Of a DNA stretch of 64,000 bases, positions 2,167-58,349 are shown piece by piece; within the stretch, counting starts at the first letter, position 1; each line of letters begins with the position of its first letter. Made by a program: the position numbers and the translations under genes. Below the pieces are notes generated by a model, which was not told where the DNA came from, did not search any database, and was given only the letters and a program-made list of their open reading frames with translations. This stretch comes from Octopus sinensis (lineage: Eukaryota), in assembly GCF_006345805.1 (NCBI RefSeq), contig NC_042998.1:67146001-67210000 (forward strand), written 5' to 3'.

Positions 2167-2375
2167 AAGTAGAACCTCGATTTTCAAACAACTCTGATCA
2201 CGAACAAATCGTTCATTATCGCCCCTCTTTCTCATATTCATTTAATACAGTAGGACCTCAGTTTAGGAACGCCTCTTATCACGAACAAATCCTGATTTAT
2301 ATATATATATATATATATATATACAAAGCACGATTAATTCGCGATCAGACTTGTTCGAAAACCGAGGAACTACTG
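2167..2375. mobile_element. pogo/Tigger-like MITE
   Basis: Terminal inverted repeats (a/c)agtagaacctcgattttcaaacaa...ttgttcgaaaaccgaggaactactg in a TA context, with a second left TIR copy at ~2249 (cagtaggacctc). Confidence 0.6.
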
Positions 2376-2394
2376 TGTATATATATATACACAC

Positions 2395-3728
2395 AGGAAG
2401 AAGTTGCTTAACTCAGCTCCTACAACACTATGACTGGGTGCTGAAACGAGTGCTCAACCACTCAAATGTGGAAGTCATATATCTCGACTTTGCAAAGGCC
2501 TTTGATAAAGTCGATCATGGAATGCTATGTCACAAACTGCGTGATCTTGGCATAGTTGGAAAATTGGGAGAAGGGCTTCATGACTTTCTGAAGGATAGAA
2601 ATCAGGTGGTAGTAGCTTCCACTAACACGCAAATAGTGAGCAGTGTTCCGCAGGGCACTGTTTTGGGACCACTACTGTTCATAATGGCCCTCTCAGACAT
2701 GCCCTCAGCCACGCAGAGAGCCACGATCACAAGTTATGCAGATGATACAAAAGTTTCACAGGCAATACAGAACCCTGAGACACTAAGCACCTGCAATGTG
2801 AGCTGGACAAAATATAAGTGGGCTGAAAAGAATAGCATGCAGTTCAATGCTGAAAAGTTTCAAGCTCTATGCAATCAACATGCAAAACTAAATGCAATAC
2901 CCAATAAATACACTGGACCTGGAGGGCCTGCATTCCCAGAGGCACAATCAGTGCGAGACCTGGGTATTTACATGAGTGATGATGCAAACTTTCATGTGCA
3001 TGTTGCTAAATTGGTAATGAAATGCAGGCGGCTGACCGGATGGATTCTTAGAACCTTCAGAACAAGAGACCAGGAAACCATGATGGTCCTCTGGAGGACA
3101 CTTGTCCTAAGCCAATTTGACTATTGCTCTCAGCTATGGTCACCATCCAGTGTCAAGTTAATCACAGAACTTGAGGCGATCCAACAAAGCTACACGAAGA
3201 AGATAGCCTCTGTGCAGCATATAAGCTATTGAGAAAGACTCAAGAGATTGAGACTCTATTCCTTAGAGCGTAGGCGAGACATATATGCCATAATATACAT
3301 ATGGAAGATCCCAGCAGGACTTGTCCCAAACTTTGGCATCGAGAGTTACACAAATGCCAGAACTGGGCGCCACCGCATAGTGCCAAGGACTCCAAATTTG
3401 CCATCAAGATGTAGGACAAGATACTGTGATAGCCTGGGCTTCCGAGGCGCACAGCTCTTCAATATCCTCCCGAAGAACCTAAGAGACCTGCATGGGGTGG
3501 ATGCAGATGTCTTTAAAATGAAACTGGATCTCTTCTTGTCAGGTATCCCAGATGAACCAACTTCACAGCAGGAGGTGCAGATGAGGGCAGCTGCATCGAA
3601 CTCTCTCATGCACCAAATGGCAATTGCTAAAAAGCATTCGTGAAGTAAAATCGTGTAGCAACACCAAATGGCGGTGCCCCAGCATGGCCACAGCTTGTGA
3701 GCTGAAATTAGATAAATAAATAAAAAAA
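2395..3728 (+). mobile_element. 5'-truncated CR1-group LINE (RT domain, C-terminus, 3' tail)
   Basis: Motifs GRSCLTQLL, YLDFAKAFDKVDH, VPQGTVLGPLLF, YADDTK, RDLGI, LYSLERRR. Ends in an (ATAA)n/A tail and starts abruptly after (TA)n. Confidence 0.93.
2396..3643 (+). pseudogene. LINE ORF2 reverse transcriptase remnant
   Basis: Track ORFs 2351-3232 and 3248-3643 are in the same frame, separated by a single TGA at 3230-3232 where W is expected (SY*ERLKRL). Confidence 0.9.
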
Positions 3729-4017: not shown

Positions 4018-4069
4018 TTTTGTTGAATTTTCTGCTGCTTTTAAATAAAGTATATATATATATATATAT

Positions 4070-4460
4070 ATTAATAATATAAGGGTAAATAATTATTAAT
4101 TGCAAAATCAACAATTATTTCCGGGTAGATTTTGGTATGAAAATATAAACATTATCGGTAGAAACCTTTTCAAAAAGTTATGCATATATATAAAGGGTAA
4201 GCAACAGGTTGCTTAGCCACATACCGAAAAGTAGACATAGCAGTCAAATACCGCTTATTTCTATTTTCTCCAAATATAACTCCGCATATAACATATACAT
4301 GTAAAACAGGATGAAAAATAACGAAAATAAAGTCTGCGGTCAGTTACGGACGCGTTTCTTGGTTAGAATTAAAAAGAAATCCATTCCCCAATCAGCATAA
4401 CATTTCTTTAGATAGATTTGCAATGTTAATTTACATACCTCTTGCTCCCTTTTTATTTTC
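4070..4460 (-). mobile_element. Penelope-type terminal repeat; its end is repeated inverted at 6826-6937
   Basis: 4070-4180 is the reverse complement of 6826-6937. A degenerate hammerhead lies at 4343-4401 on minus (gttatg CTGATTG...GAAA cgcg TC cgtaac). Confidence 0.6.
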
Positions 4461-6801: not shown

Positions 6802-6988
6802 ATATTATATATTATATATGAGAGAGAACTTCTTGAAAAGGTTCCTACCGATAATGGTTATATTTCCATACCGAAATCTACCCGGAAATAATTGTTGATT
6901 TTGAAATTAATAATTATTTACCCTTATATTATTAATAATGAAATCTTTCACTCTCGTATGACAATCCATAATTCTATTCCAGATGGCC

Positions 6989-52282: not shown

Positions 52283-53215
52283 TCAGTTTTCTAAGTGTGG
52301 CTTTACAAAGAAGAAAAAAGGGTCAGTGATACCATCTTGCTGTCTGGACCATCTCTGTGTCAAAGTAGATGTGTGGGCTTGAATGAAGATGTAATAGTCA
52401 ATAAAAGTTTCTACGACACAGGGTAACACTTTTTCGTCCAACATTTGCACATAAAATTCACTGTTGAGTTGATGCCTGTATGAAGATGAAGAGTGACTTG
52501 AATCTATCAGATGCAACTGTGACCCACACCATAGTTGAAGCTGGCTTCTGACAGCATCAACGACTCCTACTACATTACTTGCAGAAAGCCTGTCATTCTT
52601 CCTGTTGGTAACTGCCCCCACGGTGAAGATCTCGTCCGGCCAGATCAACACTTTGTTAGCGGTGCGCTTCATCTCAGCTAACATGGTTTTAGCGCTGTCG
52701 AACCGTTTCCTATGGGAAGCTGCTGAAATCAACTGCCTGGATTGTTTCTTATATGCAGTTAGCTTTAAATCCATTTTGAAAACCCTGTGCATTGACGATT
52801 TTAAAACATCAAGGGATTTTGCAGTTTTTCTTGCACTCCAGCGGGAATTTCGCTTCATTCGCTTCTTCACAGCTTCAATAGTTTATTTGGCACAAATCTA
52901 TCGTTTCCTACTAGTAGTTGGCTTGTTAGAGATAGTAACGGTCTCCATATATCGTTTCCATATATTGAACAGTTTAACGACACACATTCAACTGTTTTGT
53001 TATATCCCTGTTGTTCACCCAGCTATTTTCAAAGCGACAATTTGATCATGCTTTGCTTTTGATGCCATGTTTGTTTACAAACCTGTTATAGAAGAATGAA
53101 ACAAGATATATGAACAAATGACATCTGCAAATAATTATGTAAAATTTAGATATTATCACCTAAACTGATATTCTTTAGGAGTTTTGAAATGTGTACATCT
53201 TTCTGGGACACTCTG
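52283..53215 (-). mobile_element. Tc1/mariner (DD37D/maT-like) relic, 5' TIR plus transposase N-terminal two-thirds
   Basis: TA|CAGAGTGTCCCAGAAAG TIR at 53215. ATG at 53068 (MASKAKHDQIVAL), HTH SARKTAKSLDV.KSSMHRVFKMDL, IWPDE.FTV..NRKNDR, LNSEFYVQML..VLP. Confidence 0.85.
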
Positions 53216-55453: not shown

Positions 55454-55544
55454 GTATGTATATTCTTGTGATAACTTGTCAGCGGAAAACACGACTGAAA
55501 ACAGTACTTACACCTCCGTTATGGCGGAGGTAATAATAATAATC

Positions 55545-55690
55545 ATTTCTGCTAAAAATACAACGTCTGTACTTTGTGCGGGTGGGGATTAAACCGATTT
55601 CGTGGACCCCCCAGTGCTTTACTGCTACTTATTTTATCGTTTCCGTAAGAATGAGAATTAAAGTTGGCCCCGGTGGAATTTATATTTAAA
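55545..55690 (-). mobile_element. SINE family B fragment
   Basis: ccccagtgcttt.actg.tacttattttatcg...aagaatga...aaagttggccccggtggaattt. Confidence 0.65.
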
Positions 55691-55720
55691 ACGTGGCTGT
55701 GTGGTAAGTAGCTTGCTAAC

Positions 55721-57903
55721 ACACATGCGCAGTTAGTCAGTTGCTTCCTGTTCAGCCAGAGTGGATGCGAGTCAACCAGCTCCGTCGAATTAAAGAAAAA
55801 AGACCAAAAACGGAAAGTTGTCGAGCTAAGTGATTTTGTTTATGGTGAGTTGGGCATAATTTATTGCGTGCCAATTATTATTTCAGTAAGTTGTGTCCAA
55901 CTCTGAGACAATTTCGCCTGCTCTCGGCGGCTGCCGTTTTTGTGTTCATTGAAAAAAAAAGAAAAAACAATGGAGGGGCGTGTCCTCGGAATTCAATACA
56001 GTTACTGTTAAAATTACCGTTGGCGGTAGCCAGTGCTGTGTTTGGGTTTGTTGAATTTATTCCCTTGTCAGACTACTTCGCAAGAAAATTATAAAAATAA
56101 GCCACTATTGGATTACCTTTCGGACCCATTGTTGTGGAGGTTGTGTTGCAGTTGCGGCGTTCCAGGTTCAACCCAGGCCGGGAGTACCGCAAGGCCAGAA
56201 TATTTTTGCTGTGTTTTTTCTGTTTATTAACTTTCTTTTGAACTTCATTTTAACCCCCTTTTGTTTTTTTCTTTATTGCGACATTCCGTTGATTTCTTCC
56301 CTTCTGTTGTGCTTTCTCCTTTTTGTTTTTTCAAAAATCTATCAAATTTTATTTGGACTTTTGAACTTTTCTTTTCTTCTTGCTTTTTGAGTTTAATTTG
56401 AATATATTTAAAAAAAACATGGTAATGAAAAATAACAAAATTTTGGAGAGGGAAATCATACCACCTAAAAAGTGGTTAAAAGACCGTGAAGATAGGACAG
56501 TGGTGTTGAGAACCTACTCCAAGGCACTCGACACCATCGCCCTATTCGAAAAGACGGCAATTGAAAAGGAGTTGGAAGAGTATTTGCCAACAATTAAATT
56601 CATTTCCAGGGGTGTCAAATATGCAACGGTGTGGTTGCTATTTGACACCCCTGAAGAGGCTTGCAAATTTGCTACCAAACCCCTGGAGGGTAAGGAAATC
56701 TTATTCCTGCCCACGTACAAAAAAAAGAAATTGATGAAAGCTTGGATTTGCGGACTGCCACCCGACATAGAACCCGAGTGGATAGAGGAGACTATCCGCC
56801 GGGGTCTGGGTGGCAGCGAAACTAAGCTCCTTAATGTAAAAGTTCTTCCTGCGGCTGCTTGGGTTGGGTCAAAAGAAATTTTGACCCTGTGGACCCAATC
56901 AGCCAATCTGGTTCTTCCAGATTTTTTGAAAATGGCCGGGTGCAGGTACCCGGTGATGCTTGAGGGTTGCCCCCCTAAGTGTCATCGGTGCTTGCAGTCC
57001 GGCCACATAAAGAAGAACTGTCCCCGGGAACAAAATAGGATCCCGGAACAGTTAAGTAAAACCCCTCTAGAAGAGGGAATAATAACGGCCGAGAAAGCAG
57101 AGGACTCCTCAAACAGAGGCCGAAAGAGGAAGGTGAGCAACAATGGGTGCTCACCAAAGGATAATAGGGATGAGGAGAAGGCAAATCTTCCGGCCACGGA
57201 GGAGGCGCACCCTCCCTCAGTTGAAAAGGAAAAAAAAAAGAAAAGAGGAAGAAAAACGGGACATTGCCTGCTGTCAGTGACATAGTACCGGAATGTCCCG
57301 GAACTACGTCGGTTGGGGTTGTGCCACCGACAAGAGAAGGAATACCGTTGGCGGGAACTGTGCCGCCAACGAAAGAATTATTGGTCCTCTTCTATAGAGG
57401 AGGTGAAATTGAAAAGGTGATGGAAGAGCACCACAAGGGAGCACCTTTAGCCTTCACACAGGACCCCGAATGGCCTCCGCAGGTAGCTGTGGAGGCCGTG
57501 GCGTTCGATGTGACGCTTGGGCTAAAGGAGCTCAATGAAGATTATAACTTGGTCCCGGGCGACGCTAACTCGGAACTTGATTACGTTCTGAGGGAGGCGT
57601 GGTTGATGGTGGAGGGCGCGGGCACAAGCTATTTCGAGGACGATATGTAATTATTGAACTGTTATTATTAGTAATGGACTGGTAAGTCCAAAAATTGAAA
57701 AATTGTAAGAGGTTTAATACCTCGTTTTGTGTTTATCTTTAAAAAGAACAATGTTTTAGAGAAGCGAAAGTCGGCGGGCGCTTTTTGTCTTCTCCCATCC
57801 TTATCATCTTTCTTTCATTATCATTCACTTCATTAATGTCCTCGTCCAGCCCGCAAAGCTAACTTAATCTGTGTACTGCCTTTATGGCAAATGTTTTGAA
57901 ATA
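55721..57903 (+). mobile_element. ORF1-only (HAL1-like) non-LTR retroelement with 15-bp TSD
   Basis: TSD aagtagcttgctaac at 55706-55720 and 57904-57918. ~700-nt 5' UTR, gag-like ORF, ~250-nt 3' UTR ending aataaa. No RT or endonuclease. Confidence 0.88.
56419..57650 (+). CDS. L1/Tx1-type ORF1 (RRM-like region plus CCHC zinc knuckle), split by a -1 frameshift near the A-run at 57230-57239
   Basis: CHRCLQSGHIKKNC (CX2CX4HX4C) preceded by YPVMLEGCPPK and WICGLPPDI. The downstream ORF 57264-57650 is in the -1 frame and open back through the A-run. Confidence 0.8.
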
Positions 57904-58052
57904 AAGTAGCTTGCTAACCAACCACATGGTTCCGGGTTCAGTCCCACTGCGTGGCATCTTGGGCAAGTCTCTTCTTCTATAGCCCCAGGCCGACCAATAC
58001 CTTGTGAGTGGATTTGGTAGACGGAAACTGAAAGAAGCCTGCCGTATATATG

Positions 58053-58083
<31 letters not shown>

Positions 58084-58349
58084 TTGTGTCTGTGTTTGTC
58101 CCCCTAGCATTGCTTGACAACCGATGCTGGTGTGTTTACGTCCCCGTAACCTAGCGGTTCGGCAAAAGAGACCGATAAAATAAGTACTGGGCTTACAAAG
58201 AATAAGTCCCGGGGTCGATTTGCTCGACTAAAGGCGGTGCTCCAGCATGACCACAGTCAAATGACTGAAACAAGTAAAAAAAGAAAAAAAAAACCAAATG
58301 CAGCTAAGCATTTTGCCGTGCGTGTTAACGGTTGTCAGCTCACCACCTT

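Follow-up and report, generated by a model that had tools for sequence, protein, structure and literature searches.

We describe in Octopus sinensis a family of non-LTR retroelements that encode ORF1 only and are inserted into a SINE head at a single fixed base, and we consider it very probable that they are copied into this site by the endonuclease and reverse transcriptase (EN/RT) of a 5.45-kb LINE of the L1 group that occupies the same base. The copy studied here lies in a window of 64,000 nt, the whole stretch of DNA that was analysed, to which all coordinates refer; the element and its host SINE are read on the + strand. The SINE is best read as an abundant, safe and harmless landing pad.

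The exact sequence AAGTAGCTTGCTAAC is present twice in the window, at 55706-55720 and 57904-57918, as a repeat that cannot be extended, and the DNA between the two copies measures 2183 bp, just as a preliminary description of this DNA had stated. That description took the repeat for a perfect 15-bp target-site duplication (TSD), which needs revision: only about the first 10 bp are duplicated target, while the CTAAC of the left copy (55716-55720) is encoded by the element. The pentamer was assigned to the element because it stands on the 5' side in all 11 copies in which the host sequence 3' of the insert is TTAC-like, and the element therefore starts at 55716. In these copies the 5' and 3' sides share prefixes of 5-12 nt; some junctions hold one or two extra bases ahead of CTAAC, and four 5'-truncated copies have duplications of 7-12 bp. 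Our best estimate for the left TSD is 10 bp (55706-55715; range 9-12), and the right TSD extends over 57904-57913, its first AA also completing the AATAAA of the element. The terminal pentamer is a mimic of the target, its five bases being the next five of the TAAC target. Apparently perfect TSDs can thus contain element-encoded bases, and this calls for caution in the reading of other insertions.

Downstream of the pentamer, the 5' UTR (55721-56418) contains 15 runs of at least four T and presumably an internal Pol II promoter; Rfam returned no ribozyme or tRNA match for it, and ARAGORN no tRNA. Many unrelated 5' UTRs are found across the ORF1-only families. The 3' UTR (57651-57903) includes one copy of a unit of about 70 bp (57662-57735) that is tandemly repeated in most other copies, with up to about five units in relatives (L103, L128, L059). 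Near its end, a hairpin with a 4-bp stem and a 5-nt loop (57877-57889), which shows compensatory changes and is followed by GAAATA(AA), is common to autonomous and ORF1-only families. As the preliminary description held, a domain search detected neither reverse transcriptase nor endonuclease in the 2183 bp. There is also no terminal repeat beyond the TSD and no protease or integrase domain in the insert, which is not an LTR element or provirus; its product is 'gag-like' by virtue of a CCHC knuckle only. Contigs of two sequencing runs, guessed to be RNA, cover the stretch and have no bearing on transcription.

When the flanks of the insert are joined they restore a SINE head. Genome-wide there are 28,602 exact copies of this head without an insert, 32,260 of a version that differs by one base (TTAC type) and 6,206 of an AAGAAG/TTCC version. 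In the window, a 5' remnant of the head with an A-box-like motif (55694-55704) occupies 55693-55705, the first ~9 nt being absent, and the remaining host SINE (57914-58290) comprises a B-box-like motif (57935-57945), body, TA/TG repeat and tail. In place of the missing first ~9 nt there is, just upstream, an A-T-rich fragment (55500-55690) with a weak match at 161-191, possibly another repeat in reverse. Intact heads have the two box-like motifs 32 nt apart, with the insertion point between them. The proposal that the insert splits a tRNA-derived head between its A and B boxes is thus borne out as regards the motifs on either side, but neither ARAGORN nor Rfam recognised a tRNA in the head; the case for a tRNA origin is therefore made by the box motifs, the 32 nt between them and the octopus SINE literature, in which, according to the available portions, these SINEs are reported as tRNA-derived (PMC8967140, PMC4758252).

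Does the insertion matter to the SINE population? Exact heads are interrupted in 187 of 28,789 cases for the TAAC type (0.65%) and in 300 of 32,560 for the TTAC type (0.92%). A 2.2-kb gap between A and B boxes is expected to abolish a type-2 Pol III promoter; with fewer than 1% of heads occupied, however, silencing of SINEs is negligible, and the earlier idea of a meaningful effect on SINE promoters was abandoned, as was silencing as a function of the element. We also dismissed a preference for the TAAC host subfamily, since TTAC heads are struck slightly more (0.92% vs 0.65%, p 1.5e-4), a difference confounded with age.

Targeting was examined genome-wide from both ends of the element. The 5' end gave 216 candidates; the best 40 by score sit without exception at one and the same base, 36 of them in the SINE head and four immediately behind a sister element. 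Exact 5' ends number 52, and the 30 that come first by position likewise all lie at the site (26 in the head, four behind a sister element). A flank-free pattern found 154 exact family 3' ends, among them those of C, a recombinant sister family that has this 3' end too; again, none of the first 30 by position departs from the site. Exact patterns miss decayed copies, and what was sampled was the 30 leading entries by position, or the 40 top-scoring ones, rather than every member of the family. Site and orientation are fixed. More generic junction patterns are found 1,115 times (AAGTAG type) and 411 times (AAGAAG type), against 29 and three for reversed controls, and 12 of 12 inspected AAGAAG junctions are related tails in SINE heads. 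All 39 full-length copies with both ends measure 1888-2409 bp, too short for ORF2; copy counts leave aside L097, in which the 3' part is replaced by another SINE body, and L130, which has no 5' end. Sister families bounded by the SINE head gave no EN/RT match. The preliminary description had proposed a non-autonomous ORF1-only family that specifically targets the SINE head, and had named random insertion sites or an ORF2 in other copies as observations that would speak against it; none of 30 family 3' ends lies outside the target and every one of the 39 full-length copies falls between 1.9 and 2.4 kb, so that the proposal stands.

Within this material, two copies 3.9 kb apart (C2:180408906 and 180412762; L082/L083, L198/L199) have identical host flanks and are probably a local duplication rather than two insertions. 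In family C (L146, L147, L150) the 5' UTR and the N-terminal part of ORF1 are ~69% alike to the window element and the C-terminal part and 3' UTR 92-98% alike, from which we conclude that ORF1-only families swap 3' halves.

Since the SINE flanks are the same in every copy and the 15 nt of the 5' junction hardly vary, a single insertion into a SINE master followed by amplification of SINE and insert as one unit might be considered. Such hitchhiking, already largely refuted, is in our judgement very improbable. The hosts fall into three or more SINE subfamilies, and their bodies are three times more diverged than the inserts (median 8.3% vs 2.7%); host and element distances show no correlation (Mantel rho 0.08, p 0.22, n=38, also leaving out L106, whose host is deleted), and on the element tree TAAC hosts are mixed in with TTAC hosts. 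This test of host against insert is the one that Kojima, according to the accessible part of the paper, applied to SINEU-3 in Mariner-N4 (PMC4494074). Besides the TSDs that mark the family, 5'-truncated copies (L064, L153, L163, L177) and tandem arrays are found at the same base, ORF1-only families with unrelated 5' UTRs and an autonomous LINE use the same site, and the 15 T-runs of the 5' UTR would stop Pol III. The insertions are independent.

The single ORF with a long 3' UTR of the preliminary description proved to be an incomplete account of the coding region. ORF1 is split by a -1 frameshift in a purine/A-run (57224-57245): an N-terminal part of 288 aa (56419-57285) is followed in the -1 frame by a C-terminal part of 141 codons from stop to stop (57225-57650), so that 365 bp of the supposed 3' UTR are coding. 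The C-terminal part is in frame in sister copies, which have an unbroken frame of 392-434 codons, and across relatives ORF1 reads through as one frame of 390-434 aa. The run is length-polymorphic, 20 of 39 copies being as in the window, 13 in frame and six in another state, and one well-supported subclade is mostly in frame (4/7). The main masters likely carried the -1 shift; slippage or assembly error may account for individual copies. Short-read contigs show substitutions at 57239/57240 and no indel there among 12 of 23 rows listed, which lends weak support to the frameshifted state being real rather than an assembly error. Slippery-type heptamers are present in frame, but the downstream stem is unremarkable (z -1.6 against mononucleotide shuffles) and too distant; we give programmed frameshifting low odds. 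Most family copies carry further ORF1 breaks besides the shift in the A-run. HeT-A gag is said to have an internal frameshift as well, to go by the title of a paper cited in PMC5786205. A 47-bp imperfect palindrome inside ORF1 (56607-56653) is present in most family copies.

The N-terminal part of ORF1 is predicted to contain two RRMs (aa ~27-181), a CCHC knuckle (aa 187-202) and a disordered linker. The zf-CCHC match is weak (E 0.004), and Atlas clusters for ORF1 are CCHC and ZCCHC3-RBD. A model from a 58-sequence alignment (pLDDT 86.7), used in place of an earlier, poor 13-sequence fold (pLDDT 50.7), has two beta-alpha-beta-beta-alpha-beta domains that match tandem-RRM proteins, with Foldseek TM-scores that are low (0.25-0.45) because domain orientation differs. 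A word-based protein search with ORF1 returned two octopus proteins only. Three ORF1 relatives (P0004, P0127, P0128) are annotated as host genes in octopus proteomes (uncharacterized LOC entries, 'EPM2A-interacting 1-like') and are likely unrecognised retrotransposon ORF1s.

ORF1 is under purifying selection. The dN/dS comparison among copies that the preliminary description had suggested gave 0.12-0.28 against 10 ORF1-only copies (dS up to 1.75); for the C-terminal part the values are 0.22-0.31 against the four nearest sequences and 0.32-0.72 against the other twelve. Changes found in at least three copies are 3 N:12 S and private changes 101 N:39 S (p 1e-4). In a tree restricted to rows with at least 130 aligned residues, 12 ORF1-only sequences and one database protein form a clade (SH-aLRT 100) on a branch of 1.39 substitutions, with a long-branch warning and no outgroup, separate from both autonomous ORF1s and from the relatives in other octopods. 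The lineage is therefore old while the window family is young, and the earlier claim of a young family holds for the latter but not for the ORF1-only lineage as a whole.

Among 60 junction loci chosen regardless of family, the best match was an ORF1-only element at 43, an ORF2-bearing LINE at 16 and none at one. The main autonomous family is represented by five full-length copies of 5.39-5.47 kb inside the same SINE head; these are ~98% alike, which suggests a similar age to the ORF1-only family. Its ORF1 is a 488-codon frame with CCHC, and its ORF2 matches Exo_endo_phos (E 4e-13), RVT_1 (E 2e-27) and zf-RVT (E 9e-9) and is closest, among solved structures, to human L1 ORF2p. With two ORFs, an N-terminal APE endonuclease, RT and a C-terminal zinc finger, this LINE belongs to the L1 group (L1 + Tx1) and is closest to L1. 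The nearest named matches to its RT come from Argonauta and from a fish, the fish protein being a ZCCHC3-type polyprotein (39% in the RT), and no named Tx1 RT was returned among the database matches. Of its 89 exact 3' ends, the 30 that come first by position lie without exception at the base used by the ORF1-only family, a specificity for a repeated sequence that is common, though not universal, in the Tx1 clade.

An autonomous APE-RT partner sharing the 3' end of the element (57780-57903) had been anticipated. A LINE of this type is indeed present at the same base, but only ~35 nt of tail are common to both, not 120 bp; as DNA, the window element and the partner are similar in the last 37 nt only (78%, E 0.07, weak as DNA). 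Over 34 distinct tails, the terminal hairpin has 91.9% of cells paired and 10 two-sided changes; none of 500 shuffles scored as high, and slid controls reached 15-56%. The hairpin consists of four pairs picked by eye from the same, related sequences, and kinship can beat a shuffle control; a covarying 3' hairpin common to both families is for these reasons suggestive. At least three autonomous tail variants are found at the junctions. The partner and a further family, B, have the 5' pentamer CTAAC, family C has CTTAC even in TAAC hosts, and an old tandem case (L296) has CTTCC; in older families, known only in TTAC hosts, the pentamer is indistinguishable from the TSD.

From the shared site, tail and age we propose that the element borrows the ORF2p of this partner and is mobilised in trans. 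It would be transcribed from its own 5' UTR, and its ORF1p (predicted tandem RRM + CCHC) would package the RNA, the 3' hairpin of which may be recognised by partner ORF2p. At the junction, the bottom strand has the TT/A step that L1-type endonucleases cut; ORF2p would nick it there (GGT^AAG on the top strand), with priming on the terminal AA of AATAAA, without poly(A), and the top strand would be cut ~10 nt further on. The target site is recreated 3' of each insert, hence the tandem arrays. The 5' pentamer repeats the target bases that follow and may assist in joining the 5' end, a plain alternative being that flanking bases were captured via a shifted start site.

More speculatively, three tiers may have tracked SINE evolution, one SINE subfamily after another having received, at a single base, insertions of an L1/Tx1-type LINE and of an ORF1-only clade that separated from it long ago; the family pentamers (CTAAC youngest, CTTAC older, CTTCC in one old tandem) would then be a functional target mimic that primes the second strand and allows precise full-length integration without poly(A). 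We regard this extension as possible but doubtful.

A challenge to mobilisation by this partner comes from how little connects the two elements, namely the last 37 nt and homologous ORF1s (E 1e-20) that are only 29% identical and fall into separate clades. Given this divergence, and the existence of at least three autonomous tail variants, the ORF1-only family could have been moved by a different, unsampled LINE, the 5.45-kb element being merely co-resident. Yet the latter has the same base, orientation, TSD pattern, pentamer and hairpin and a similar age, and no other ORF2-bearing group was found among the 60 junctions, which makes an unsampled LINE quite improbable. The same 29% identity means that the donor of the half-element was not found. 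Also to be weighed against the proposal are the frameshifted ORF1 of 20 of 39 copies, the one in the window among them, and the additional breaks in most copies. The common 3' tail and target might suggest that the element arose from the autonomous LINE by a single or recent internal deletion, for which we see next to no chance: the length of all 39 full-length copies, the lack of DNA similarity to the partner beyond the last 37 nt and the single ORF1-only clade on its long branch together rule it out. A further question concerns origin only and is compatible with mobilisation by the partner, namely whether the ancestral target was the anticodon arm of a real tRNA gene, SINE heads acting as decoys with inherited sequence. 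In a tRNA-like head the site would coincide with the anticodon stem, and the Dada DNA transposons target tRNA anticodon arms in the accessible part of PMC8869645; against this, all 30 + 30 unbiased 3' flanks run on into SINE body and Rfam gives no tRNA match for the head, and we think such an origin unlikely.

The window holds other repeats. A 111-nt inverted repeat (4069-4179 and 6827-6937; arms 2.6 kb apart and 95% complementary) has the look of DNA transposon or MITE termini, and the DNA between the arms contains no long ORF with a clear domain. A 321-codon open frame at 2267-3229 (+) has RT-like motifs (YLDFAKAFDKV) and is a fragment of an unrelated LINE, and a 199-codon frame at 52286-52882 (-) resembles, by eye, the N-terminus of a Tc1/mariner transposase.

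Mammalian HAL1 is an L1 derivative with an ORF1p of coiled coil, RRM and CTD. The octopus family is of HAL1 type in that it encodes ORF1p without ORF2, has been amplified by retrotransposition and has a selected ORF1; with its predicted tandem RRM + CCHC ORF1 and octopod-named relatives, it is analogous to HAL1 in the strict sense and not a member. HAL1 (half-L1), which comes from the L1 clade, HeT-A and Ag-Sponge are non-autonomous LINEs that retain ORF1, according to the accessible parts of PMC5786205 and PMC5753468. Like them, the octopus family encodes ORF1p only and would rely on an autonomous LINE; unlike them, it has a strict single-base SINE target, no poly(A) tail, and an ORF1 29% identical to that of the resident partner with no common 5' end, and is therefore not a recognisable internal deletion of that partner.

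The octopus system appears to work like a Tx1-type target-specific LINE with a HAL1-type passenger. In the available text of PMC4494074, target-specific LINEs of the Tx1 clade include Tx1L in Tx1D, Tx1-Mar in Mariner-N4_AMi with SINEU passengers, Keno, Kibi and Koshi, the targets listed are DNA transposons, LTR elements, snRNA, 5S and microsatellites, and SINEU specificity is 13-90%. As there, an APE-RT LINE in a repeated target is joined by non-autonomous passengers at the same target and by tandem insertions around the TSD; in contrast to what that text describes, the octopus target is a SINE head between A and B boxes, specificity is 30/30, the passenger is protein-coding and the 5' ends have a target-like pentamer. 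The Dictyostelium pair TRE5-A.1/TRE5-A.2 inserts ~50 bp upstream of tRNA genes via ORF1p-TFIIIB contact, with demonstrated trans-mobilisation and an essential structured 3' module, in the portion of PMC3159450 available. It resembles the octopus pair in combining an autonomous and an ORF1-retaining non-autonomous element aimed at Pol III units, whereas the octopus pair uses a fixed sequence and TRE5-A.2 is, by the same source, a direct deletion derivative. Dada elements, as the accessible part of PMC8869645 has it, are DNA transposons in real tRNA genes, around the anticodon arm or A box, with target bases replaced at junctions. On that account, octopus insertions are alike in their position within Pol III units, near the anticodon arm or A box, and in the replaced target bases, but the octopus elements are not DNA transposons, are not in real tRNA genes, and Dada orientation is opposite.

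A literature search conducted outside Repbase and Repbase Reports (where the families may be entered), most subscription papers and the target-list supplements of PMC4494074 found no account of a LINE fixed in a SINE head or of the octopus system. The system offers a clean, countable natural case of a LINE that uses a SINE promoter as a single-base safe harbour, and one in which the host enzyme is outnumbered by its passengers, an old lineage that codes for protein (16 against 43 of 60 junctions). Three questions become accessible to test: why ORF1 is retained in half-LINEs, by what means an APE-type endonuclease attains nearly absolute specificity, and how, given a 5' target mimic, the 5' junction and the second strand come about. 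ORF1-only LINEs, transposon-targeting Tx1 LINEs with passengers and the TRE5-A pair are known and each covers part of what we describe; what is new is the strict landing site in a SINE head.
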